This document shows positions 1 through 54,629 of a stretch of 64,000 bases of DNA, piece by piece. Positions within the stretch are counted from its first letter, which is position 1, and each line of letters starts with the position of its first letter. The notes under the pieces are model-generated. The model saw only the letters and a program-made list of their open reading frames with translations, did no database searches and had not been told where the DNA came from. The translations under genes and the position numbers were made by a program. Source of the stretch: Fistulifera solaris (lineage: Eukaryota); NCBI GenBank assembly GCA_030295235.1, contig AP026162.1, positions 1-64,000 of the forward strand, read 5' to 3'.

Positions 1-96
1 AACCCTAACCCTAACCCTAACCCTAACCCTAACCCTAACCCTAACCCTAACCCTAACCCTAACCCTAACCCTAACCCTAACCCCAACCCTAACCCT
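1..96. repeat. Telomeric repeat tract (AACCCT)n, equivalent to TTAGGG on the minus strand; chromosome end
   Basis: 16 tandem hexamers from base 1, with one variant unit AACCCC at 79-84. C-rich strand on +, as expected at a left chromosome end. Confidence 0.98.
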
Positions 97-259
97 AATA
101 GTCGGAAGTTTTGCAATACTTTGAAGTTATGCTAGATTTAGAAGTTTTCTAATAGTCGGAAGTTTTGCAATAGTCGATAGTATTCCAAAAGTTGAGAGTT
201 ATGCAATAGTCGGAAGTTTTCCAAATAGTAGGAAGTTATCCAATAGTCGGAAGATATGC
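97..259. repeat. Subtelomeric degenerate 18-bp tandem repeat, consensus AATAGTCGGAAGTT(T/A)T(G/C)C, 9 copies
   Basis: Units start at 97, 115, 133, 151, 169, 187, 205, 224 and 242. Units 1 and 4 are identical; unit 7 differs from them by one base. Confidence 0.9.
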
Positions 260-17800: not shown

Positions 17801-18675
17801 ATGTTTAAGAATCTAAAAGAAATTTTACACGCGAATTCAGCAATAATAAAACGCACCAGAAAACGCAAATTGCACAATCTTTCGTGTCTCTTTCTCTTCT
17901 ATCATCGTCATATTCAAGTCGTCTGAAGGCTGTTGATGAAGATGATTGTAATAATTCCACTGATAACGTCGCACAGGATTTCGCGGTGTTTTTCGTTTCA
18001 TGCACAACAAAGATTTCTCTGGAGAGTGTTAGGACCGGCAAATGCTCTCTCGGTGGATCTCGTGTGGCTTGGTCGTATCGGCCTTGTAATAATGGAAAGC
18101 TTTACCTATGGGTTGCGCCATGGCCGCATCGCCGACAAACTGGCGGATACGCAATAATCAAAACGTGTTGCGGCTTACCAATAACCTTAACTGGTAGCCT
18201 CAACTCTATTAGACATGAATAGGGAACTCGTGAGTCATTTGGCTCGCTCAGTCACGAGTCTTGAATTGAGAATGAAATAATGATGTAAACCTTACAAGTT
18301 ACAAGTAGACTGTATAAACTGCTCAAAATGTCCGAGGTACTGTTTCGACTTAGTGGTGTCTTGAATGAATCTTGAATCTTCGTTTTATTTAGATCTTTTA
18401 TTAAAAGTACTGACATCAGACGAGAGACGACTCCTCTGTTAGAGGGAAGAAGAAGGCCCAATGCTATTGCTCGAGACAGAAGATTCAAACTGCCCAATCC
18501 CTCGGCGGAACTTGTGTAACACTGCTCCTTCGCATTGCTCCTGCGTCCTGCGCCAATAATTTCAAAAAGGAGAACGCACAAGCATCACAATTGATTGCAA
18601 TCGATAGCACCTAACATTATAAGTGGAGCGACAGCAATTTGTTAATCGATTTGCTGTACCTGGTAGCTATTCAAC

Positions 18676-18924
18676 ATGCAACTACCGTCAACAACAAACC
18701 CGCGATTTTCTGGAGCCAAAAACATGCCCGGCGAGAAAAGAAGAGAGTCGCTCGGTCTAAAATCTTCTTCGAACGGCCTCATGAAGATGAAGCTGTCCAA
18801 AGCATTTAAAAAATCAATCGTCACTACTAACAGCGATGACGACGAAGATGATCGATGGAATTCTACATCATCTTCCGAGTTATCTTTGGATGCTCCACCG
18901 TCGCCCCCAAAACGTAGTCTATAG
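18676..18924 (+). CDS. Small disordered orphan protein with RW-S...P-x-P-x-R-S C-terminal motif
   Basis: 82-aa ATG ORF preceded by TTCAAC and ending DRWNSTSSSELSLDAPPSPPKRSL. Confidence 0.6.
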   Translation: MQLPSTTNPRFSGAKNMPGEKRRESLGLKSSSNGLMKMKLSKAFKKSIVTTNSDDDEDDRWNSTSSSELSLDAPPSPPKRSL

Positions 18925-19232
18925 CTGATCAGCACCAGAACGTTACTGCAGTACTTCGACACCATTTGGCTTGGGCTGCTTGTGTTTCAGGCACCTTTCA
19001 AAAAACTCGGAATTTATGAGCGGTTCGGTCTGTGAGCATAACTATGGTTCGAGACAACGTTTGCCTCGCGAGTAAAACGCAATTATCAACATGTGAATTT
19101 ACATGAATATTAATTCTTAAATACACCTTATAAAGCCGATCTTATTTGTACATGCTAAAACTGTTGATTTGTCACCTTGCAAGGCTCGTGTGAGCAACAA
19201 TGATTGACAACTTACACGAACATTGTGTCTGG

Positions 19233-19496
19233 TTATCTATCATCGCAGAGCATGGATCGGCGACGACCAGGTTTCCTGAGTGTCCTCTGTGAACGGATAT
19301 AGCTTTCAGATGATGACCATCGCGACAAAGGGAATCTGTTTGTCACCAAAAGTGCCGATGGTGTTTCAGCTTCAAACTCAATTGTTCTGTTGCTGGCCAG
19401 GTCAAAAACAACTTTCTTGGATGCAGAAGAGACAAACGAGGCGGAAGAAGTGTTCCTAGAGCTTATCGGATCGCCCCTGGATCTTGTGGAAACCAT
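19233..19496 (-). CDS. Small orphan protein with KKVVF and RWSSS...KPGRRRS motifs
   Basis: 87-aa ORF from an ATG preceded by CAAA; shares C-terminal motif order with the convergent neighbour. Confidence 0.5.
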   Translation of the reverse strand: MVSTRSRGDPISSRNTSSASFVSSASKKVVFDLASNRTIEFEAETPSALLVTNRFPLSRWSSSESYIRSQRTLRKPGRRRSMLCDDR

Positions 19497-19667
19497 TTTG
19501 CAAACGGAGCTCTGGTCCGTATATGCTTTGATTTCGTGCAAAGGTTGCGGACTGGTCTTCTGATGGATGATTAACATTGAAGTATAGTATAATCAAAGTG
19601 TTGCCTGTTAGATGAAACGTTCAAAATTGTGGTAGGATTCTTTCTCTTTTGTTTCATTTCAACCCCA

Positions 19668-20300
19668 CACCTTCCACCTTCCACCTTCCACCTTGTGACT
19701 TGTGACCGAGAGCGAAAAGTGAAAAGCGAAGGGAATAAGCTGTGGGCTGTGGCTGGCGGCTGGCGGCGGTTCAGACGGGCATAAGATAGCATCTATAATA
19801 AGGTTACGCGGAAAGCGGATCCGCCATCCGCCATCCGCTATTTGGTACTGTACAAAGTATGAGGTCTTTGCGTTGTACAGTTTCATGTTTAATGTTTATC
19901 ATAGTTTCGAAGAAATAAAAATGACGTCAATAATCGATAAATCATAAATCTGCTTTCATTCTAACTGTTTCTATTCATAATTAAGTCCATCGAACGGTCA
20001 TCGGTCATCGCAGTTCGCATGTCTTCGCATTCGGAACAGAAAAATGACTGTGTACTTTAGGGCTGGTAGTATTTGAAAGAATTTGTTGCTTTTGTGAGTG
20101 ATTTACGATTTACGTGGTCCTGTGTCTACAGTCTACAGTAAACTTTAACTGCAAGCGGTAGGTGGCGAGGATATCAATCACTTCCGACTAACGTCATTGA
20201 CGATTCTTAACGTTGTTATGTATTGTTATTGTTATTATCAGCCCCTCGCCCCTCATTTTGCTCCCTTTGACTCCTGACTCCTGACTCCTGACCCCTGACT
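19668..20300. repeat. Cluster of at least 10 different 7-bp tandem duplications
   Basis: CACCTTC x3.9, CTTGTGA x2, GCTGTGG x2, CTGGCGG x2, ATCCGCC x~3, CGGTCAT x2, GATTTAC x2, GTCTACA x2, GCCCCTC x2, TGACTCC x~4.7. Confidence 0.9.
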
Positions 20301-20756
20301 TGACACGCAGTTGACATTCGCCATCGCCAATCCACAAACTAACAATAGAAAGCCCCTTCGGCGTTCGTCAATACGAAGTATTATCTTACGTATTTCTTCT
20401 ATGATTTACTAACAGAAATACCTGAAAAATGAATTGTGAGCTCTTCATTGAAAGAATGCATTTACAGTTTCAAAGAGACGACAGATAGCATATTTCTTGA
20501 TCGTGACAAAAGCTACACAAACATTTCATTCCCGTAAAGTACTATGACGATGCCAGTAGTCAGTTTGTCCGCCGCGCGCGGAGCGGCGCTCGGTGTAAGT
20601 GTAAACGAGAGCAACCATGGAGATCACTTGACATTGTGTCGTCGCTAAGAATTATTTGCAGGCGACGAGCTACTCGCATTCATTGCTTGTCTTGGAGGAC
20701 CAGCGAAAAGGGCTCGTAATTCGTTAAAGAACGAGGGAAAGAAAGGCAATTGTATA

Positions 20757-22543
20757 ATGATAATTCAACTCACATTTCCAAGATTTCGGGTGTTATGCCA
20801 ACGATCGCTTTCCTTTTCTGCGGCTAGAGCGAATCGTTTTCTAGCTGCAGCAATGGAGCCGCAGCGACTAATTAGTCAAAAAAGATGTTTTCATCCTAAT
20901 CACGTAATGGATGCTAACGAGGAAAATCATGAAAGCCAACAGAAAAAACATCTTGATCGCAGGAAAAAGCCTTATCATCGATTGCAAGTTTGCATTGTGG
21001 GGCCACCCAACGCGGGAAAATCTACTCTATACAATCGACTGTGTCGTCCTTCTCGTCGACGACCTGCTCTGGTAAGTCCTACCGCCGGAACAACTCGCGA
21101 TACACTAGAAGCCGAAGGACAACTGGGAGGACTGTTTTTTGATATAATGGATACTGCCGGCTTGACTCGAACGGCGCAAATGGCGTCACTCCGTCCTGTG
21201 CATGCGGATGTGATCCTATTCACTCTAGATGGGCGAGAGAGGGTGACACGACTGGTGCAAGAGTGGGCTCGGTGGTTGCGACAGTCCTTTTGTCATCGCG
21301 CAATGATGATACGAGTATTCTGGTGCTGTGCAATAAACTCGAACACACTGCCACACATCGAGACGATTTCGACGAGCACTGGCATGAGTGGCTCTCTTTA
21401 GGTCTCGGTGAACCTCTAGCGATTTCAGCTATCCACGGAGATGGCTTAGCTGACTTAGCTGTCATTCTCCAAGAAGAACATGAGAAGCGAATGCATCTAA
21501 GCGACGATGATACAGCCGAACAGCGTACCCACGACGAAAAGAATGAGACCAATGAATGCGAGGACAAACCGCTTACCATGGCCATTCTGGGTCGCCCCAA
21601 CGTGGGTAAGTCTACTCTGGTGAATACCTTGTTTGGTGCGGAACGTGTTTTAACGGGACCGAACCCTGGCGTGACACGTGACGCGGTGACGATTCCGTGG
21701 CAATGGAAAGACCATGTCATACATTTGGTAGATACAGCGGGTATACGAAAGCCACAGCATACATCCAAGTCACATTCTTACAGCGCGAACGACTCGACTT
21801 GGTTGGAAGAACAGGCTGTCCAAGATGCATGGAGAGCGTTGCAGTTTTCGCATGTTGCAGTATTAGTGTTGGATGCAACGGCGCGACAGCTGACTCAACA
21901 AGATCTTCGTATCGCCGCGGCTATCGTTGAAGAAGGACGTGCACTGGTAGTGGTTGTCAATAAAATGGATACATTGTTGGAGGAAGACTACTCCGTTACT
22001 GATTTAGAAAAGGATGTCCGTGATCATCTCGAATCGCGATTCCCTATGCTACGAAAAACTCCGATTGTTGTGCTGAGTGCGCTGCATCAAACTTCTCAGA
22101 ACATTCAGAAGGCGCTTTTACCTGTAGTAATTCGTGCTGAACAACGATGGCAACGTAAAATTACGACAGGACAACTGAATCAATGGATGGCTGAAATTCA
22201 AAAAGAATATTCGTCTGGATCAGGTTTTCCCAAAATCAAGTATATGGTGCAAACAAATACAAGGCCACCAACATTTGTCCTGTTCACCAATCACGTGCCG
22301 GCGAACGACTCCTATTTACGCTACTTGACACGCCACTTCCAAGATACGTTTGAGCTGTACGGCATGGCCGTACGTTTGTTTTTTCGGACAAGCAAGAACC
22401 CGTTTGTTTCTGCATCAACCTCAAACAAGACAACACGCGGCGGTAGCGGTTTAGGGGGACGAGCAGCTCGTCAAGAGCGCAAAGTAAAGGCATTAAAGAG
22501 CGGAGAGACAGTCAAGCGTCGTAGACGAATCAAGCGCAAATAA
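20757..22543 (+). CDS. der: Der/EngA double-GTPase (organellar ribosome biogenesis)
   Basis: Two G domains: GPPNAGKSTL/GTTRD/DTAG/NKLE/SAIHG and GRPNVGKSTL/GVTRD/DTAG/NKMD/SAL. C-terminal KIKYMVQ..RPPTFVLF..YLRYL. Frameshift near 21290. N-terminus resembles a mitochondrial presequence. Confidence 0.93.
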
Positions 22544-22648
22544 AATTCACTAGTTATTGTGCGTATATATGTATTTGCATCTTGAGAGACCACGCGATCT
22601 TGACTTTAAGATGTCTACTTTTGCGTCGTTCTTCTCCTTGTTGCTTCT

Positions 22649-23329
22649 TTAATAATAATGTCGCATATCATCGTCGCCAGGTGCTCGAGGCATACGTATT
22701 TGCCTTGCCGGATGGTGAGGCTGTGTTAACACCGGCGTTGCATCCAAGAGTTCAGACATGACACTCGTCGGACTTGACCTTCTGGCGAGAGCAGCGCGAC
22801 CAGCCTCTTTCTCACTCGTAATATTTGGTAAGGTCTCATCTGTTACGGCGAAGGCATCTGCTGTTCCCATTAACCGAGCCCAGTTTCTTGCATCTTGTGA
22901 AAAAGTCTCTGATAACCGAGCCAAAACGGTCGCTCGATAGTCCTCTTCTGCATCGGCTAGCTTCATTTGAGCGCGCAAGACTGATTGAAGAGTTCTCTTT
23001 CGAATATCGGATCGTTTCGCCGCATATTCAGCATGAATCCATCGTTCTAAACCTCGCCGCAAACCTCCATGACGAGCCCAGCGATTCAAGGCATTTTGTG
23101 TCTCCTCGCACGTTTTCCCATACAAATTCGTTAACAAGGAAGAATAACCATGCTTGTTAGACTCTTTCGCTACAACCATCGCTTTTCGCTTAATGTGACT
23201 TAATTCAAAAGCTTGATACCAAATATCGTGCGGAGATACAGTCGAATGATCTAAAATAGCCTCGCTCGAACAAACTTCATTGTTTACTGTGAATTGTATG
23301 CGTCGTTTGTGTGTTTTCGTCTCCTTCAT
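22649..23329 (-). CDS. Uncharacterised protein, IxF...WY...RGLE family typical of diatoms
   Basis: MKETKTHKRRIQF...DIWYQAFEL...RRGLERW...SVLRAQ...ARLMGTADA. Confidence 0.75.
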   Translation of the reverse strand: MKETKTHKRRIQFTVNNEVCSSEAILDHSTVSPHDIWYQAFELSHIKRKAMVVAKESNKHGYSSLLTNLYGKTCEETQNALNRWARHGGLRRGLERWIHAEYAAKRSDIRKRTLQSVLRAQMKLADAEEDYRATVLARLSETFSQDARNWARLMGTADAFAVTDETLPNITSEKEAGRAALARRSSPTSVMSELLDATPVLTQPHHPARQIRMPRAPGDDDMRHYY

Positions 23330-23927
23330 AATAGCCTCTTGGCTTCGTAATTGTGTTTGTTCGCGATTGAATAGGATTGTTGTATGATTATTGTTAGCAA
23401 TGGAACATCTTTTGCTTGGTCTCTTGTAATGGCAAGAGCAAAGAGGCCAGAAAACCACAAAAAGCAAAACAAAGCAGAAACGGAGCCGAAAACGCAAAAG
23501 GGGCGAAAAAGAGAAAAGCGGTGCGCCGCGGGCTTCCAGCTTCCAGTACCTACTATGCACGAAAATGTAGGCGGAATCTGAATTGGTCGTGGATTTCAGT
23601 GACGAGTTCAAGTTCGAAAAGGCCCAAAGAATTGTCAATAAAGAGGTCGTCATAAAGTATGCTGAAACACTTATATCATTATTTCTGTAAGAGGCAAAAA
23701 TCGTCAGGTCTTCTGCGGTAGTAAGAAGTTACTCTCAATAGGGCGTGTTCTTGTATCGCAGCGCGTATAACCAACCACTTACTCGACTCCTTGTCACACC
23801 AAAGGCCGAAAACGCCTAAACATAAAACGTCATCCCTTTGCGTGACAATAATGAGGTCGTTATTACACGACGATCGTTTATCATACTACGTATTGATGTT
23901 TTTAATAAACTACGTGTATAACCAGCG

Positions 23928-24427
23928 ATGCTCACCCACAACAGAATAAAAACCCTTTATGCTCGTTCCATAGCCTTTGCTTGGATGGTAGCGCGATTGT
24001 CGCTTGTCCTTTGTGTATTAGCACAGCCTGATTATTCTGGCCCAAAATGTACAGGGTGCCATCCAACGGCTGCGATTGCTTCAACAGCCTTTGGGAATGT
24101 AAAGACGGCTATGACGCTTTGACAACGTGCCCACACGGAGCATGTTTTGTGTCGCTCAAGGGTGAACCGACGTGCGGAGAGTCGTATTTATGTCAACCGT
24201 GTACAAGTGATGATGATTGCTTGGCGCCACAGTGAGTCCAAACACGGAAATTCCGAAATCACGACGCGCCGCTCACTTGTGTTCGTCTTCCTTTCAATCT
24301 CTACAGTGAGGCATGTGTCTGGTACGGATTTGCGAAGGGTACCGACTGTGAAACAAATGGATATGATTGTGCTACTCAAGGAAGCCTTTGCGCGAGTACA
24401 GTATTGTTCGCCTTGCAAAAAGACTAA
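23928..24427 (+). CDS. Small secreted cysteine-rich protein, paralog A (14 Cys in the mature part)
   Basis: Hydrophobic leader ending VLCVLA-QP. One G missing near 24055. Intron 24232-24306. Homologous to the convergent gene. Confidence 0.75.
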
Positions 24428-24749
24428 GATGACTAAAACAAAAGGATTATGGAACAACCGATTTGTTCATAAGGCGCTTGCGTCAATTTAATTCTAGAGC
24501 CGCGACAAAGTTGGTATCCCTGAAGTACTTGGTAGCCGCGGGACCCCATTTACGACACGAAGCGCCTTATTCTACTCCCTCATCACGGAAGCAAAGAATC
24601 GCTAACAGCCATCAGTGATGCTCTATGGAAAATAAATTCCATTTGAACTCAATAGATATGTAAAATTTTGTTGTGTAGTCTTGATGTAAACTACACACAG
24701 AGCAGTATTTTTTATCCATTACGACAAGTTACTCAACCATGGCTTCCGT

Positions 24750-25286
24750 TTACACAACGCGCGTTGCACACACCTGTCGGCCTTCCAACAAGCCCGAGCA
24801 GAGACTATGCGAAATGCGTCCGACGTAGATACATGCTTCACTAAATAATATGAAAAGGATAACAGAAGGGTGAGATTAGGGATGATAGGACGTGATTGGA
24901 TCAAGTTGATGCATTTACAAGAAAACACAAACTATACGTGAATTTCAATGTTCTTACCCTGCATCGCATTCGCTTGAGGCGGAACATTCTTTTCCTCCTC
25001 CAGTTGCACAAATCGGATCTCCTTCAACAGTCGTAACACAGCCTGCTTCCGGATTACTTGGGCATACGACAGCACTATCCGGGTCCCGACAACGGTATTG
25101 ACTATTCTCGCAATTGCAACCATTTTCTTCCGGGCCACTACAAGCTGGGGCGCGAGGTCCACTCAGAAATGTACTTCGATCGGAAAACAATGTGTCACTT
25201 GCTTGAGAAGTTGCGACCCGCGGAAGCGACGCAAGAAACACGACCATGAGCGCGCCTTGCATGAATAGAGTGCTGCTAGTCTTCAT
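24750..25286 (-). CDS. Small secreted cysteine-rich protein, paralog B (12 Cys)
   Basis: Signal peptide MKTSSTLFMQGALMVVFLASLPRVATS. Intron 24841-24957. Exon 2 encodes EACIYVGRISHSLCSGLLEGRQVCATRVV*. Confidence 0.8.
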
Positions 25287-27082
25287 TGTGATTTAATATT
25301 CGGTAAATGGATATCAAGAACGATAATCGATGGAATGAAAATCTATAAAATAGCGTGTCGTATCTTTCAGCCTCTCGCTGCTTCTTGTGTTGAAAGACGA
25401 ACAAAAAAGCTTCGAAGCCGACGAATGCCGCGAGCCGCGAGCCGCGAAAATGCCGATGCCGCCCATAAGTCCAAAAAAGTCCGTCCTCCGTCCTCATCCT
25501 TATCCCTAAGGAAGTTTTCATGGCTTAAAGTCGACTTTACAGGATAAGTGGACTTAAAAGTCCTCTTAATTTCTGGACGTAGGACATGGTAGGATTTGTA
25601 CACAGATGATTTTTTCTCCACCTCGCGTAACAACGACATTGACGTCAATGATGCTGATCATTGATTTGCATCAAAAAGAGCGATTCAGTTAAAGAAATTC
25701 AAATACAAACATAGTAAATCCTCTTGCTATCGGTATGGGCTGCTAAACTTGCCCAAGGGCTGCTTGTAAGAGCCGAAGGGGACTTATCGCCTCGTATCCG
25801 TAATACCTCCGTTGCGCAGTCGATTGCAGCCAACTCCTGTTGAGAAAATCAATGTACCTGACTATGTAAGTGATCGAAATATCATAAAAAGTCTTTTCTT
25901 TATTAGCTCTCACCTATTGTCAACGTTTTAGGCCCCATTCGTTCCGGTACGGCGCAAGCAATTTCATGATCGTCGCCATGCTTTTTCCCTAAGTAAAATC
26001 GTGATTTGTGGACGCGCTTCTTTAATTTCAAACTCCTTCATTCAACAATCAACCAAAGTGTCCAAGAAAAGTCAATTCTTGTTTTATTACTTGAACTCCG
26101 CTCCGTTGGGGTCGGTAGCTGCTCTAGAGTCACGACGAGCGGAGCCTATCCATGATCTCGACTAGCAGTCCATTCTGAACGCCATCTGCTTGATTTACCT
26201 CGCAGTTTGTTTTTGCGGAGGTTTTGAGCCTCCGCCTGTTTCAAGAGTTCGTGTTATCGTGACGTGATAGTGTGGAAACAACAATTTGCTCTTCACATCA
26301 ATGCGTTGGAAACTGGTGCTGTTTGGGTATACATGTTCGCGAAGGCTTTGCAAAAGAATCCCAGTACTCCTCTTTTTGATATTATGTTGGATTCGAGTGA
26401 GGAATCTAGCGATTGCAACTTCTTCCGTCGTTTTCCTTTGAGAGTGATTCAATGCTGTTGCTTCGCCGACATGCATACAACAATCCCCATGCCAGCCATG
26501 GACTCGTTTACAACTTTTGGCGCCTTTTATGTGTCGAGGCAGGGATTCGTTGACCGCTAATTTTATTCAGAAAATGGATGGAAGGGAATGTTAGGCACAC
26601 AACGGTGTCTATACTACATGTTTCATTGCGACAAAGAAGCGTCGGAAGTCTTTACGATGCCTAGGTCAGCTTAATAGATCTAAGTTCCTTCTTTTGCTTA
26701 AACGCGATTATTATACGGAGTAGTAAGATTGACTTAGTCATTAGCAGTGTTTTCTCCTAAAGGCGACTGGTATAGCAGAGGCCATGAGCCGTCGACGAGG
26801 GTGTTCAAAACAATCGCCAACGTCCAATTCTACCATAAATACTCCATTTAAAGACGCATAAAAGTTATTGAAGACCCGGAGTCGAGGATAGTCAGAGTTG
26901 TACTGAGTCATGAACATGAATGACTCAATCGTTTTTCGCGAAAACCCGGAAGTTGAAGCCTCACCAAAAAAAAATCGCCGACCGTCGTGTTATTGCATCG
27001 CAGCCCATTATTAGGAAAGGTATACATTACACTTCATTTCAAATTCATGTGTCCTGACTTAATCACTTCCAGACCTCTTATA

Positions 27083-29405
27083 ATGAAAAGTAATTCTATT
27101 AGACTATATGGGTCAGATGTTCGAATTAGAAGAAGAAGAACATCCATTAAAAGAGGAACACTGTTTCTTATCCTGATCGGTGTTTTTGCAGAGCGCTCTC
27201 AGTCCTTTCTCTTTCATGTTCCTCAACAACTACGGTCTTACCCTTCATTAACATCGCAATGCAGAAGGAATGATATAGAGCGTTATATCTGCTCGCAGTC
27301 GCCTTCAGCACTTTTTCTCGGTGTCTCTCAATCTACGTCAACGAATAACAACCGCAATCGCCGCTCATCGACGGACGATTCCTCGTCTTGGGAGCAGCGA
27401 ATACGGAAAGCGGGACGACAGGGTCGCACAGATGAAGCTATTGAACTCTACGAGACGCTTTTGCGACAATCATCTTCTTTTCTTACAATTCGTCACGTCA
27501 ACGCTGCTATAGATGCCCTCGCTCGGGCGTCTCCTCCTCGATTAGAACAAGCACTGCAACTGGCTCAATCCTCTCCTTGTCGCGTCAACGTTTACACACT
27601 GGGAATGCTGCTGAACGCGTGTGCGCGTGCTGGAGACGCCGTCACCGCACAGCGATGGCTGCGACAGGCGAATACTCTTTTGCTAGAAATCCGATTGCGC
27701 CCAATGAAGTGTGTTACCAAGCATGCATGACAGCCTGTGTTCAAGCAAATGACTTTGCTTCTTGTCGTAAACTATTTCATGAGGCTCTTGAAAAGGAATT
27801 CCCTTGACCGTGATTGGTTACAATATCGTTGTATCGGCCGCGGCGAAACAAGGGGATTGGCAAACAGCCATGGCTGTTGTAAAGCAAATGCAAGCACCGA
27901 ATTCCACTACCCCTGCCCCAGATGCTGTTACATACGGAACGCTGTTAGCAGCATGCGAAGCGGCGGGACAGTGGCTTCAAGTTCTCGAGCAGGCGCAAGC
28001 CATGAAGAACGAAGGATTTGATCTTGATGTGAGGGCTTTGAGTAGTTGTCTACACGCTTGTCAGCAACTAGGGCGAGCTGAACAGGCATTGCAGCTACTA
28101 GAGCAGATGGAAGCATTGCCGGCGACTGATACACAGGTACCTGACGCTGTGGCGTATCGTCTGGCTCTTTCGGCGTGTGCGCGGGGTGGGAAACTGGCGG
28201 AAGGCTTACGGTTGTTGGAAAAGTTGGAAACGCATTTCCCACACGAAGAAGCCAATGTCGTAGCATACACTGCTGCTATTGCAGGGTGCGAATCAGAAGG
28301 GCAGTGGAAAGTGGCATTTCGCTTAGTTGATCGCATGCGCAAACGCGGTGTTCAACCCAATGAAATGACATTCGTAGCAGTCCTTGCCGCTTGCGCCACA
28401 GCATGTGCACGCCAAGCTTCGACGTTGGCGTCAAAAACGTCTACAGACGTATCAGCTCCCAAAGATATTACGAGCTCGGAACCTTACCAGCAGGCTATGA
28501 AGCTGTTGCGCGTCTTGAAGAAAGATACGACAGTAGTAAATCCTAACATTCACGTGTACAATGCTGCTTTGCGTGTATGCGCGGAGGCATGCGATTTGAA
28601 AGGAGCATTTGCGCTCTATAACGAGCTGATTGAGGACCGAGATTCATCTGCTAACATACCTGAAGGGACCGTCACTTTGGCACCCAATATTGTCACATTC
28701 GGCACGTTGATGACTGCATGTGAACGTGTAGGAAGTATGGAAGGTGTAACTCAAGTATTTCGTTGGATGCAGGATCTTTCTGGTCCTCCTATAAAGCCCA
28801 ATGAAATCGTTTATGGTGCGGCCCTCAGTGCATGCCGACGTGCACAAAATGACGAACGCTCTTTCTTTCTGTTTGAGCAGATGCTACAAAACCCAAAGTT
28901 ACGACCGAACGTCGCTACATATAATACAGTTTTGCTGGCTCAAACCGAAGCGGGTACGAAAACATCAACGGCAAGGGCGCTGTCAGTCTTTCGATCTCTT
29001 TACAACAGCCCGTACACACAGCCCAATCGGCAATCGTATCAGATTATAATTCGTGCTCTTGCTTTGGATCGCCGGCCTTTAGAAGCATTGACATTGTTGC
29101 AACAAATGCAGCAGGCTGGGTTCCGTCCAGACGTAGATCTATATACCTGCACCGTCGCAGCGTTCGAAAAGACGGGCCAGCCTGCTCAAGCGCTCAAGTT
29201 GATGGAGGCCATGCGCGCCGATGGGTATGACTTCTATTCCAACGGGGTACTGGATGCGGCATTCAAGCAAGGGGTACAGATTGTGAGTTCAGTCCAGCGC
29301 GGTTTAGAAACGAAAAAGATGCCGAAATCTCTCGATGCTGGATTGGGCGCCCCTCGCTCGTTTAATGAAACGATTGCGCAATGGATAGCTCCTAGTATGG
29401 AATAA
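27083..29405 (+). CDS. Pentatricopeptide repeat (PPR) protein, possibly plastid-targeted
   Basis: Many 35-aa repeats (PDAVTYGTLLAAC, NVVAYTAAIAGC, PNIHVYNAALRVC, PNIVTFGTLMTAC, PNEIVYGAALSAC). Hydrophobic segment TLFLILIGVFAERSQS-F. Frameshifts near 27680 and 27800. Start codon uncertain. Confidence 0.92.
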
Positions 29406-29494
29406 ATTCAATAATATTAGCAATAATGATTTCAGATATTGTAAATCTAAAAAGCAGCTAAAGCACTGTTTCATATTTTCCAATTCTCGCTGGC

Positions 29495-30541
29495 CTACTT
29501 CATCGCCATGATAATTTTGTAAACCGCCATGCCCAACAATCCCATTTGCAACGGTTCCATTGTGGCAACATTCTGTCGTGCTGTTTGTACCGAGAAGCGT
29601 CCTGTCGATGGGTCCGTACCCAAAGCGCTGACGGTTCGAAATACATAAGCAGCTGACATGATCATCCCCAACTGCTGATACCATGACTTGGTAGGTTTGG
29701 GGGTATTATAGCCAAACGAGGAATCCTGCGGAGGCATTTCTTGAGACAGCGAGGGACGTTCATCTGCGGCGATCGCCTCGTTCAATGACACCCCAAACGA
29801 CTTTAGCTCCTTCGCATCATCGTATCCTAGCTTATAATAACGTTCCTTGAGTGCGTCTTCGTTCAGAATTCTTGCCGCTGATGATGAAGTAGATTGTGCG
29901 CTATATTCGTCACTTAGATTGAGCATCGATGGTGCAGAGCTAGCTGAAGAAGGCATGATTGATCGTACGAAAAAGACAAGGACTAATCCCATGAAGGCCG
30001 TGCTCATGTACTGATTTGAGGCGATTTGTGGCCCTACATAGGGCAATTCCCGAATTCGGTCACGACAGCGTTGAGGGAAATTTCGCAACATCGTCTGTCG
30101 AGAAGAGCCCCAATCAGGTGCAATGATAGTCGCCAAAAGCAAAGCAAAACTAATCACCATGAGCACTCGCGTGAACCCAATATAGTAGATCACAGCAAGA
30201 AGGAATAAACCCGCAGCAGCACCCGCATAATGCAACGGTAATCCTGTTCGTTGCTGAATTTGTTGCGTCGCATTTTGAACGTATCGCTGCACATTACGAT
30301 CGTTTCGTAACAATTGATACTGCCCTGCAATTTGTTCCATCCAGCTCGCCTTGACAAGATTCTCTGCTTTTAAGGCAATTTGATCTTGCGATACCGCCAT
30401 GTGTATAATGTATCGCTGTCGATCGGCTGCATATTGCAAAACGATTCCTAAAGCACCGTTACGATCAGCGCGACTCGTGTTTTGTATTTTCACAACTGTT
30501 GTTGGAGGGTTTGTTACCCAACCGTTCGGATCGCTAGCCAT
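29495..30541 (-). CDS. Uncharacterised membrane protein with an N-terminal SH3-like beta domain
   Basis: Intact 348-aa ORF; VKIQNTSRADRNGALGIV...RYII...ALKAENL followed by several hydrophobic helices. Confidence 0.8.
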   Translation of the reverse strand: MASDPNGWVTNPPTTVVKIQNTSRADRNGALGIVLQYAADRQRYIIHMAVSQDQIALKAENLVKASWMEQIAGQYQLLRNDRNVQRYVQNATQQIQQRTGLPLHYAGAAAGLFLLAVIYYIGFTRVLMVISFALLLATIIAPDWGSSRQTMLRNFPQRCRDRIRELPYVGPQIASNQYMSTAFMGLVLVFFVRSIMPSSASSAPSMLNLSDEYSAQSTSSSAARILNEDALKERYYKLGYDDAKELKSFGVSLNEAIAADERPSLSQEMPPQDSSFGYNTPKPTKSWYQQLGMIMSAAYVFRTVSALGTDPSTGRFSVQTARQNVATMEPLQMGLLGMAVYKIIMAMK

Positions 30542-47677: not shown

Positions 47678-47875
47678 AATTTTCTGGTAACGTGAAATCA
47701 CCACTCCCCCATATTTTCTGGTAGAGTAAAAAACCACAATCCCACATTTTCTGGTAGAGCAAAAACATTCGCCCACATTTTCTGGTCTCGTGAATGGAGT
47801 GAAAATACCACTTGCCCACAATTTCCGGTCACGTAAAATCACCACTTCCCCACATTTTCTGGTAACGTGAAATAC
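47678..47875. repeat. Six-copy ~32-bp degenerate tandem repeat, core CCCACATTTTCTGGT
   Basis: TTTTCTGGT five times plus one TTTCCGGT variant, with related intervening sequence; lies between two divergent genes. Confidence 0.85.
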
Positions 47876-51844: not shown

Positions 51845-52054
51845 CCTCCGCTTCGGAAAAACAAGATCGCTTTTTGCACAACGCGGCGGAAGATGACACG
51901 CAACACGCAACAAAGGACTTCGCTACAATTATCAACCGACGCACCAGTTTGTTGTAACTTACAGTAGTTGCTTTTTTCAAGCTGAACAGAAAAGCAAACA
52001 CAAGATTTTATTGTAAGAACCGACGCGTATTTACATCAATACAAGACATCACAC

Positions 52055-52693
52055 ATGGGACGATACTGCGCCGACTGCGGTTACTACCGCGACCCCGACG
52101 ACTTCTCAAACAACCAGTGGCGTAAAGGCTCCGGTGTTTCGCGTTGCTACAGCTGTGTTGACGGAGGCGGTTGCTCTCGTCGACGCTGTGCTGAATGTGG
52201 CTATAACAAGACCTCTGATGAGTACAGCGACAATCAGTGGTGGAAAGGAGAAGGAGTTTCCCGTTGCCGCGAATGCGTCAACACCCCGTACAGCTGTCAC
52301 GAGTGCGGTCGCACGTTTCAGAATCGCAATAACCTCGAAATGCACATGCAAGTTCATCGTCCTCGCAACGTTGCGTGTCCCATTTGTGGAGATCGTCGCT
52401 TCAAGTCGGGAGCGAACGCAGTTCAGCATGTGGAAAATGGTGGGTGTTCTCAATGCGGCGGAGGCGAGTACGCTCGGGAACAAATCTGGAAATTCGCTTC
52501 GAAGAAACGAGCCATGCATCGCTACATGACTGAGGTACCCATGCTTACCTACAATGGCGAATGCTATGATGAGATTCCTGATTATCCGTACCAGTGCCCC
52601 GATTGTTACGTCCAGTACCGCAATTTGAGTCAGTTGCTGCAGCATCAAGACCAAAAACACGGCGCCCGTCTCCCCATGTTGACGAATCGTTGA
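52055..52693 (+). CDS. Zinc-finger protein: two Stc1-like CxxC..SxNQWxK..RCxxC fingers plus three C2H2/C2HC fingers, paralog 1
   Basis: Intact 212-aa ORF; CADC..FSNNQWRKG..RCYSC, CAEC..YSDNQWWKG..RCREC, CHECGRTF..LEMHMQVH. Confidence 0.9.
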   Translation: MGRYCADCGYYRDPDDFSNNQWRKGSGVSRCYSCVDGGGCSRRRCAECGYNKTSDEYSDNQWWKGEGVSRCRECVNTPYSCHECGRTFQNRNNLEMHMQVHRPRNVACPICGDRRFKSGANAVQHVENGGCSQCGGGEYAREQIWKFASKKRAMHRYMTEVPMLTYNGECYDEIPDYPYQCPDCYVQYRNLSQLLQHQDQKHGARLPMLTNR

Positions 52694-53183
52694 ATCACGA
52701 CTAGGCAGGTTCGTTCTAGACAATGGATTTGCGGAAACTTAGAACAAGCAACGAGAGCGGGAATCTGGTCAACTATTTTACGCGCTTCCTTGCAAGTCTT
52801 TTTTTATCTTCCAAGCACCTATATGAAACCAAACAAAAAAGTCTATAAACATAAATTTAATAATGAATTTACTATTCTTAGCTTCGCAGGCGGATAGATT
52901 GTCATGATCGACGCCCCTAGCTAAAATTGCGAGCCAAAAGATACGCAAGTTAACAACTCTCTTGCGTAGAGTACTTGTGATTGTGACCTGTGGCGGACAT
53001 CGCGAAAAAGATACGAATGCCTTTACTTGTAGCCGCCCGACACGAGACTTTTGTAGGCCATTACGTTTTGAGTGAAGGATTTCTTGCATCTCGCTTATTC
53101 CCAGATGCTCTTGCGGTTTATTTACTGCGCAACTTACAAAAGAAAACTGAAGGTCAAACAAGAGAAACTTACTTTTATCAATT

Positions 53184-53825
53184 ACGAAGCGCATCTGCAT
53201 CGCCTGTGATTACTATTGCGAGCCCAACGAGTTCTCGAACAATCAATGGAACAAAGGACCCGGTCTTTCGCGTTGCATGGATTGCCTAGGCGGCGGTCGT
53301 CGTGTGTGTGCGAATTGCGGCTATCTGAAGTCATCCGCCTGCTACAGCGACAAGGAGTGGTGCAAAGGAGAAAGATCGAGTTGCAAGGAATGTGTCGACC
53401 CCAACTATCAGTACGAGATCCAGTGCAGTGAGTGCGATCGAGTTTTCAAGAGTCGCAACAACCTCGAAATGCACATGCAAGTTCATCGTCCCCGCAACAT
53501 TGCATGTCCTATCTGTGGAGACCGTCGCTTCAAATCAGGAGCGAATGCAGTGCAGCATGTAGAGAGTGGTGGGTGTTCACAATGCGGTGGAGGCGAGTCC
53601 GCTCGCAAACAGATTTCGCAATTTGCTTGTAAGAAGCAAGCAATGCGCCGCTTCCTGACCGAGGTACCCATGATCACGTACTACGGTGACAATCCTTACG
53701 GAGAAGTGCCGGACTATCCTTACAAGTGCCCAGATTGCTCGATTCACTACCGCAATCTCAGTCAATTGATGCAACATCAAGATCAAAAGCATGGTGACCG
53801 TCATCTTGTGTTGACGAATCTTTGA
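53184..53825 (+). CDS. Zinc-finger protein, tandem paralog 2; aligned start codon is ACG
   Basis: Colinear with paralog 1 along its whole length. First in-frame ATG is 53277, but homology extends to 53184. In-frame stop at 53148. Confidence 0.85.
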   Translation, partial: TKRICIACDYYCEPNEFSNNQWNKGPGLSRCMDCLGGGRRVCANCGYLKSSACYSDKEWCKGERSSCKECVDPNYQYEIQCSECDRVFKSRNNLEMHMQVHRPRNIACPICGDRRFKSGANAVQHVESGGCSQCGGGESARKQISQFACKKQAMRRFLTEVPMITYYGDNPYGEVPDYPYKCPDCSIHYRNLSQLMQHQDQKHGDRHLVLTNL

Positions 53826-54074
53826 GCGCGAATGCAGTACGTGTTCTCTATAAACCTTTTGTGAAGAATACCAAAGCGGAGGAATAGCTTAGGGCTGGAA
53901 GCATGTTGTTAGGCATTGTGCTTCTCCGAGTCTTCGAGGTCTTTAGTTTCTTGCAAGCTTAATCACTAATACTTCTTTGATATCTAAGGTATAGCACTAG
54001 AGCAACAGAATAACGAAGAGCGGAACGCGAATAAAATCAGCTCACCGCTCGCCGCTTGTCACGTTTCAACTCGA

Positions 54075-54629
54075 AGATCGTAGATCGTAGATCGGACAGC
54101 GTCAAGCGTCGAGCGTCAACCGATTAGTGAAGATGAAAGAGTTTGAAATAGCTGACTTTGTCTTCTCGTTTTGAACTTTATTATTCAAGGCATCTTTGTC
54201 TTCGGAAATATCGTCGTTGCATTAATTCCCAGTTCTTTGTCTTCGTATCCCATGTTCTATACATAAACCTGATATCTGCTGTAGGTAGAAAGTAGAAAGT
54301 GAATAAAGTTGACTAACTTATCTTGAATCTTACTGGTAAGATATAATAAAGCTCTAGACGTCCAAGATCCAAAATGCCTAAATCCTACTGTAAACAATCT
54401 GCTGTTGCTATGACTCGAAGATATAAAGCGCTATTCCCGAAGACTCGATGCGGGATGCGGAATGCGGAAAGCGGAATTTTGGCGTCTCGCCTTCTCTACA
54501 TTTTTTCATTACTTATAGACTACATCATTGAGTAGACTCAAGTCTCAAGTCTCAAATCTCAAATCATCTCAAGTTACAAGTAAGTAGTAAGTAGTCGAGA
54601 CTACAGATTTTTGACGTGAAAGGTGAAAA
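54075..54629. repeat. Second cluster of different 7-bp tandem duplications
   Basis: AGATCGT x~3, AGCGTCR x3, GTAGAAA x2, GATGCGG-like x4, CTCAAGT/CTCAAAT x4, AGTAAGT x2, GTGAAAR x2. Confidence 0.88.

Follow-up and report, generated by a model that had tools for sequence, protein, structure and literature searches.

Unrelated 7-bp tandem duplications in the non-coding DNA of Fistulifera solaris: a dense intergenic field and a possible staggered-cut origin

The heptamer field and its setting

The window analysed here, 64,000 nucleotides in length, is C1:1-64000, the start of one of the 62 contigs in a 51.7-Mb assembly of Fistulifera solaris, which is described as an allopolyploid diatom with homoeologous chromosome pairs (10.1101/2021.11.10.468027). 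An aldolase encoded in the window is 100% identical to a protein assigned to F. solaris. The window is a chromosome end and opens with telomeric AACCCT repeats (window 1-253); a subtelomeric 18/36-bp repeat lies at 97-253. Telomeric AACCCT mixed with 7-base variants (e.g., CTCCTAA and CCCTAAC) is also seen at C2:1-523 and in loci L050, L055, L057 and L058. The homoeologous contig, C2, is collinear with the window and its genes are ~86% identical. The field of duplications, at 19668-20300, sits within a C1-specific stretch (19226-20492) in place of which C2 has ~145 bp, and no second copy of 19400-20491 was found in the assembly. To the left of the field, beginning 90 bp away, is a short minus-strand ORF (19242-19577, 112 codons shown), which is possibly a small gene; it has no Pfam match, is missing from C2 and is called on the plus strand instead by the codon model. 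This ORF contains a KKVVF stretch, which we take to resemble the PP1-docking RVxF motif. A further short ORF, on the plus strand at 18724-18918 and adjoining a heptamer field, has no Pfam match either and lies in a region that aligns to C2 at 70%. To the right is an EngA/Der-like double GTPase gene (20649-22543, plus strand) with Pfam matches to MMR_HSR1, twice, and KH_dom-like. The assembly presents this gene as two overlapping ORFs, probably because of a one-base assembly error at 21287, behind which runs X1, X2 and X4 all have one extra base.

Twelve perfect period-7 runs cover 202 of the 633 bases of the field. A cascade of abutting units, reaching ~19767, is headed by CACCTTC (3.9 copies, 19668-19694) and takes in CTTGTGA (2.1 copies, 19692-19706), which overlaps the CACCTTC run, an imperfect AGCGAAA (2.9 copies, 84% matches, 19711-19730), GCTGTGG (2 copies, 19739-19752) and GGCTGGC (2.4 copies, 19751-19767), the last being the CTGGCGG of an earlier note on this DNA. 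The remainder of the field contains ATCCGCC (2.9 copies, 19819-19838), ATGTTTA (2 copies, 19885-19898), ATAAATC (2 copies, 19937-19950), CGGTCAT (2.3 copies, 19995-20010), GATTTAC (2.1 copies, 20100-20114), GTCTACA (2.3 copies, 20124-20139), GCCCCTC (2 copies, 20241-20254) and TGACTCC (4.7 copies, 20268-20300, perfect up to 20292 and diverged beyond). All ten heptamers of the earlier note were thus recovered, in place or shifted by a few bases, while ATGTTTA and ATAAATC are additions to its list. Dinucleotide shuffles of the field sequence (n = 2,000) gave a mean of 0.03 period-7 runs and a maximum of 1. The lag-7 base match is 0.447, as compared to 0.23-0.32 for the 28 other lags tested. Among 747 kb of the genome scanned, the field is the joint densest 633-bp window of period-7 runs, with a P value of ~1e-10 against the mean non-coding density, before correction for the number of windows.

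Contigs from two public sequencing runs span the field, indicating that it is real DNA, and the observation of a heptamer field is confirmed. Contig record 1 of the short-read run X1 covers 18001-21007 without a substitution and with a single gap letter, and a short-read contig thus carries the sequence, in line with the check proposed in the earlier note; as X1 may be the source sample, this comparison tests the assembly and not independent biology. Record 7 of the wetland-metagenome run X2 covers 18368-21165 and differs by 10 substitutions and 38 gap letters; the spans compared, of 2798 and 2808 letters, resolve these gaps into a net 14 missing and 24 extra letters, which is compatible with, and a hint of, heptamer changes. 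Runs X3 and X4 cover scraps of the window, and a scan of the metagenomes for an allele of the field found none.

Unit length, distribution and anatomy of the duplications

Duplications with this unit length are in excess over the whole window (52 period-7 runs vs 3.6 in shuffled sequence), where period 6 gives 41 runs vs 11.4 and period 8 gives 3 vs 1.1. A 520-kb sample of non-ORF DNA from 21 contigs has a sharp peak at 7 (193 runs vs 7.0 shuffled), standing above periods 5 (141 vs 102), 6 (85 vs 26), 8 (20 vs 2) and 9 (0 vs 0.2); at period 4, the excess in non-ORF DNA is 1.4-fold. The length-specific process postulated in the earlier note, and its proposed count by unit length against shuffled controls, are borne out by this sample. 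The pattern is real and genome-wide: both subgenomes carry it (120 runs in 162 kb of C1 and 109 in 168 kb of C2), and 18 of the 19 samples taken from the middle of chromosomes have it too (84 runs in 190 kb). Scaling from 0.44-0.54 runs per kb, in a sample weighted to the C1 and C2 arms, would put ~20,000-30,000 perfect period-7 runs in the assembly. Other dense heptamer fields were seen at 54071-54595 of the window, at C1:143202-143700 and at C2:16321-16452, C2:28676-28799 and C2:50145-50583; the C2 fields occupy the same intergenic spacers as C1 fields with different units. A heptamer-rich spacer also follows a tandem pair of similar C2H2 zinc-finger ORFs at 51986-53825 of the window, and a degenerate tandem repeat of 33-34 bp lies at 47679-47872.

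The excess is restricted to non-coding DNA. Codon-model gene calls over 747 kb, which are rough and miss small genes, place 19 period-7 runs in 421 kb of coding DNA, a chance level. In the same 747 kb, the density is 1.39 runs per kb in divergent spacers, 1.28 in tandem spacers and 0.72 in convergent spacers; short intron-like gaps have 0 runs in 7 kb. The 100 bp adjoining coding ends are poor in runs, and runs are also common 3' of genes. The AT-rich contigs C57-C61 (27-35% GC), which are probably organelle or bacterial DNA, have 2 runs in 25 kb and no 7-bp excess. Outside this genome, a naviculoid-like metagenome contig, whose aldolase is nearest to that of Seminavis (88%) among four named ones, has 10 period-7 runs vs 1.2 shuffled and no 8-mers. 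Among 14 metagenome loci of at least 2.6 kb, several of them overlapping, a clear 7-peak occurs only in L124. The signals in L071 (3 vs 0.4) and L111 (4 vs 0.9, with other periods also in excess) are weak, L077 has no 7-peak (3 vs 2.0), and 66 shorter, mostly transcript-like loci give 7 vs 5.4 period-7 runs when pooled.

The units are diverse, with 251 distinct classes among 313 runs and a unit GC of 0.45. After subtraction of shuffled counts, runs of 14, 15 and 16 bases stand at 172:86:45, near the 172:89:35 predicted by a geometric model of random flanks; hence microhomology is not needed. Half of all runs (202/404) are exactly 14 bases long without flanking homology. These findings uphold the view in the earlier note that neither ordinary slippage nor a satellite explains the pattern. 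Runs with at least three extra bases exceed the geometric expectation, the longer ones consisting of three or more copies.

In the 202 exact 14-base runs, whose register is unambiguous, T at position 2 and A at position 6 (T2/A6) have a folded frequency of 0.47 and G at position 2 one of 0.11. Shuffled controls are flat, with T2/A6 at 0.29-0.30 (p = 2e-14 for the first 162 runs). The description of the duplications as sequence-independent in the earlier note therefore wants a qualifier: the units are diverse and nearly independent of sequence, but they carry this positional bias. Both bases occur together in 38 runs, one only in 57 and 57, and neither in 50, an under-association with an odds ratio of 0.58 (p = 0.07) that is gone when positions 2 and 6 are coded as pyrimidine/purine (odds ratio 1.14). 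These counts solve to a frequency of ~0.65-0.70 on one side and a background of 0.27-0.29 on the other. Event pairs less than 400 bp apart, which are not independent of one another, share their orientation in 21 cases vs 4 (controls, 6 vs 2 and 19 vs 11), a count that excludes a tandemly repeated copy in locus L156; T/A skew does not account for this concordance. After orienting by neighbours, T2 is 0.60 and A6 is 0.39 (n = 70). The concordance is not repeated in the flanks of MITE copies, a small independent set (2 vs 2). No polarity of orientation was detected beyond 10 kb, with 39 vs 65 at 2-10 kb, and no link of orientation to gene strand was found in tandem spacers (38 vs 40). A 6-bp palindrome is present in 25 of the 202 units, as compared to a chance estimate of 24, and complementary position pairs number 36-61 of 202.

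One-mismatch pairs at period 7 (544) are little above the 411-520 at periods 5, 8, 10 and 11, which suggests, as a rough guide, that the majority of copies are young. A homoeologue test of 257 runs found 181 outside aligned blocks and 41 unalignable; 20 were untallied, and the partner was of the same length in 9 and single-copy in 6. Among the decidable runs, therefore, 6 of 15 are single-copy in the homoeologue. The indel tabulation suggested in the earlier note gave, between homoeologues, 11 indels of 5 bases, 15 of 6, 10 of 7, 2 of 8 and 6 of 9, i.e., a mild step at 7 and nothing sharper. Contig C52 seems to be an error-rich duplicate of part of C24 (C24:872631-879165); the indel spectrum between the two, which are 97% identical, is dominated by 1-3 base gaps as in sequencing error with no 7-base gap, and was not used. 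We also considered endonuclease V, which cuts two bonds 3' of deaminated A. Its gene is present, but the one-mismatch pairs have no special A/G change at position 6, and this origin was rejected.

Terminal inverted repeat elements and MITE insertion sites

The duplications co-locate with a 263-bp MITE, which we take to be of hAT type from its terminal repeats. Eight-base-pair TSDs flank 19 of the 21 copies examined, with one mismatch or a one-base shift allowed; the counts below omit copies without a clean TSD (2 of 21, and 9 of 28 in a larger set) and the C52 duplicate. Position 2 of this TSD is T in 22 of 38 folded observations. When the 19 empty sites were reconstructed, eight TSDs overlapped a period-7 run by at least 7 bases, as compared to a background of 6-7% of nearby windows (p = 1-3e-5), and seven lay wholly inside one. 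All eight overlapping runs are, by reading of the sites, in register with one TSD end. Period-7 runs reach 21 per kb in the 10 bp nearest the MITE sites, fall to 6.6-9.9 between 10 and 100 bp and to 3-4 between 100 and 400 bp, and stand at 1.1 between 400 and 800 bp; no 6- or 8-bp duplications were seen within 10 bp of the 19 sites. In the MITE flanks alone, the frequencies of T1/A7 and T2/A6 are similar, at 0.35 and 0.38 (n = 36). A TIR scan of the window found no hAT MITE near the field.

In ~0.75 Mb scanned, every element with an unambiguous TSD has one of 8 bp. The search for transposons with 7-bp TSDs that the earlier note had proposed yielded, in this ~0.75 of 51.7 Mb, one single-copy candidate and no multi-copy family. 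The candidate is a 429-bp TIR element (C1:68686-69114) whose 33-bp terminal inverted repeats start CAAGG, which we presume to be P-like, and which also has an inverted repeat inside it; its TSD can equally be taken as 5, 7 or 9 bp long and lacks T2/A6. A hAT-like non-coding TIR element (L043:810-2199) with an 8-bp TSD has a 7-bp duplication at the TSD and a dense field beside it. Two hAT loci with transposase domains are present in the genome. Two further loci have weak matches to PF10551 (MULE-like), C2:964591-969020 with 264-bp and C17:491106-496335 with 33-bp inverted repeats, and no TSD was detected at either. Profile searches of the genome for the P-transposase families PF21787 and PF12017 and for Merlin (PF12762) gave no match; such blanks do not establish absence, and the PF21787 search was a weak one that was also blank in control genomes. 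Other repeats seen on C1 are a 3.2-kb element (C1:96295-99503) that has an 8-bp TSD, is bounded by long and perfect terminal inverted repeats and contains a weak Ulp1-protease match and an unclassified 289-codon ORF (no Pfam match and low Atlas scores only), a non-coding TIR element with an 8-bp TSD (C1:105928-106811), and a repeat array of ~215-bp period with internal palindromes (C1:101156-103433).

Possible origins and known systems

The field may well be a hotspot of a genome-wide process. The reading that we prefer, and to which we give an even chance, is that a DDE-type enzyme makes cuts of 7-nt stagger in accessible intergenic DNA and that no element is left behind. When a staggered double-strand cut is filled in and joined, the product is an exact fixed-length copy without microhomology. 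Exact copies of this kind, together with T2 as a DDE target feature, point to a DDE-type cutter as a candidate. An enzyme with target chemistry like that of DDE transposases or integrases would open accessible intergenic DNA at a fixed stagger, favouring sites whose second base from the cut is T or, less often, C; fill-in of the overhangs and end-joining would then leave an exact tandem 7-bp copy and no element. The cuts could stem from clean excision of an element with a 7-bp TSD, from a 9-bp TSD losing one base per side or from target cutting without insertion. The cascades and the arrays of 3-5 copies would be built by repeated cutting of the same accessible sites and perhaps by slippage of units afterwards, and frameshifting copies would be purged from coding DNA. 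The staggered-cut reading of the earlier note thus gains the T2/A6 bias of the units, while neither an enzyme nor a multi-copy 7-bp-TSD family was found for it in our searches. It is also favoured by the T at position 2 of the MITE TSD, the clustering of runs at MITE sites, the 429-bp element with its possible 7-bp TSD and the single-copy partners of 6 of 15 decidable runs; the 8-bp length of every unambiguous TSD, the MULE-like loci without TSDs and the mild step in the homoeologue indel spectrum count against it. The numbers appear feasible. Taking the 4.8e-10 substitutions per site and generation of a diatom (PMC6604790), ~25,000 events whose copies are a few percent diverged would imply, as an estimate, ~1e-4 to 1e-3 events per genome per division, which is of the same order as the whole indel rate of 0.0004 per haploid genome in Phaeodactylum; few indels were observed in that study, and its account of them does not appear to describe 7-bp duplications (PMC6604790). 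Two features sit less easily with a DDE-type cutter. The non-joint occurrence of T2 and A6 and the shared orientation fit a one-sided host process at least as well, though retroviral integrases are reported to have a palindromic average without jointly palindromic sites (10.1101/034991). Exactly doubled TSDs would also be an unusual excision footprint, because more than 90% of MULE excisions in yeast are precise and hAT/MULE elements leave by way of flank hairpins (PMC5499845).

A host repair or replication pathway is a less probable source that deserves serious consideration. A one-sided nick or stall beside T, for example at uracil or UV damage, would lead to 7 nt of strand displacement or primer set-back, and the ends would then be ligated with no need of microhomology; the hAT MITE would merely use the same open DNA. 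The imbalance between one side at ~0.65-0.70 and the other at background, the local concordance of orientation with T2 at 0.60 and A6 at 0.39, and the occurrence of the excess in a second naviculoid-like contig (10 vs 1.2) but not in C57-C61 are all consistent with such a pathway. However, the asymmetry reaches only p = 0.07 and is lost with pyrimidine/purine coding, the concordance is 2 vs 2 in the small independent set, there is neither a link to gene strand nor polarity beyond 10 kb, and the in-register overlap with MITE TSDs is left unexplained. A sharp 7-nt product is not known to us from any repair enzyme, which also counts against a host pathway. That a housekeeping enzyme can leave duplications of stagger length is illustrated by trapped Top2, with its 2-4 bp products (PMC8795545). 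Somewhat less probable again is that the duplications are footprints of the resident hAT family, whose 8-bp TSD would lose one base at repair and whose local hopping would build fields. The MITE data are favourable, i.e., 8 of 19 empty sites overlap a run in register, the density declines with distance, L043 repeats the arrangement of TSD overlap and adjoining dense field, T1/A7 approaches T2/A6 in the flanks, and transposase domains are present. A TSD consensus of nTnnnnAn, however, predicts equal T1/A7 and T2/A6, and 95 vs 190 of 404 were observed (p = 2e-8), with A7 given T2 at only 0.27; palindromic additions do not exceed chance (25/202 vs 24), 6- and 8-bp duplications are missing within 10 bp of the MITE and no hAT MITE lies near the field. 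As T1/A7 is not enriched like T2/A6, we reject the loss of one base from an 8-bp TSD as the main source; as the two are close in the MITE flanks, hAT activity may contribute locally.

Microhomology-mediated tandem duplication, or polymerase slippage with a 7-bp preference, is quite improbable as the seeding step. There is a bacterial precedent, in which an intergenic heptamer excess was accompanied by the idea of slippage over a polymerase footprint (PMC4692102), and slippage may extend arrays once seeded, since long runs exceed the geometric expectation. But half of the runs are exactly 14 bases and the run-length distribution contradicts such seeding, while the bacterial cases involve sequence-specific G-rich units (PMC4692102). 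Selection of period-7 repeats as regulatory or structural promoter elements, which the earlier note had offered as another option, is slightly less credible still, even if divergent and tandem spacers are the richest (1.3-1.4 per kb vs 0.72) and the field sits between the short minus-strand ORF and a plus-strand gene: the density is still 0.72 per kb in convergent spacers, runs are scarce in the 100 bp beside coding ends and common at the 3' side, the units are unrelated, 9 of 257 runs have a homoeologue partner of the same length and C2 is entirely without the field. A sequencing or assembly artefact would be in keeping with the single-base errors of this assembly, such as that behind 21287, and with the error-rich C52 duplicate, but we give it almost no credence given that contigs from two public runs cross the field, coding DNA has no excess and an unrelated metagenome contig has the same peak.

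More tentatively than for the DDE-type cutter itself, we suggest that in naviculoid diatoms an element-independent nuclear activity continually makes cuts of 7-nt stagger in open intergenic DNA, has left ~20,000-30,000 duplications in the F. solaris genome and acts in register with hAT target choice. Such an activity would be that of a DDE-type nuclease that has been domesticated, or of a novel repair route, and, if real, would represent a new endogenous mutational signature and a map of accessible chromatin readable from sequence. Whatever its source, a length-locked and microhomology-free duplication appears to dominate short insertions in wild-type non-coding DNA, which points to a nuclease or repair route as its source. 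It could help to account for the largely unalignable intergenic DNA of the F. solaris subgenomes as against a gene identity of ~86%. In this alga, an industrial oil producer, the duplications may mark transposon-accessible DNA in a way that can be read from sequence alone, and they provide a eukaryotic case in which to ask why 7-bp repeats abound in some bacteria. Our literature searches found no description of a 7-bp duplication process in diatoms; repeat tables in diatom genome supplements could bear on its novelty, and the main text of the F. solaris genome report has 0 occurrences of 'heptamer', '7 bp' or 'microsatellite' (10.1101/2021.11.10.468027).

Several known systems resemble this process in part. 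Galileo, of the P superfamily, has 7-bp TSDs with a consensus of GTANTAC, i.e., T2 and A6 (PMC4168063), and both the exact 7-bp duplication without microhomology and the T2/A6 bias are found here. Galileo/P TSDs are also similar in their rare 8-bp cases; however, no element lies between the copies in F. solaris, the bias is far weaker and no P-type transposase was detected by our searches. Footprints of hAT and MULE elements are likewise short duplications in accessible DNA, and a hAT-type MITE co-locates with the duplications here, but the resident TSD is 8 bp, T1/A7 is not enriched, palindromic additions are lacking and MULE excision is mostly precise. Footprints of a MULE, with two bases lost from a 9-bp TSD, would predict a T3/A7 bias in that TSD, and the two weak PF10551 loci have inverted repeats but no TSD. 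The heptameric SSR/STRR of cyanobacteria and Xanthomonas share the intergenic excess of a 7-bp unit; heptamer repeats are over-represented in the intergenic DNA of Xanthomonas and Nostoc, an excess that has been little followed up (PMC4692102). Those repeats form few sequence families and longer arrays, whereas nearly all units here differ, mostly occur as two copies and are found in a eukaryote. Microhomology-mediated tandem duplication also converts single-copy DNA into an expandable tandem pair (10.64898/2026.02.28.708716), but here no microhomology is needed and the length is locked near 7. Trapped Top2 generates de novo duplications of 2-4 bp, known as signature ID_TOP2A (PMC8795545), which are comparable as tandem duplications of narrow length from an enzyme that cuts both strands; they differ in being 2-4 bp and requiring a mutant enzyme, whereas the duplications here are 7 bp and occur genome-wide in wild-type non-coding DNA. 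No named family matches in full, and the formation of the F. solaris heptamers may be likened to that of TSDs or of Top2 scars.
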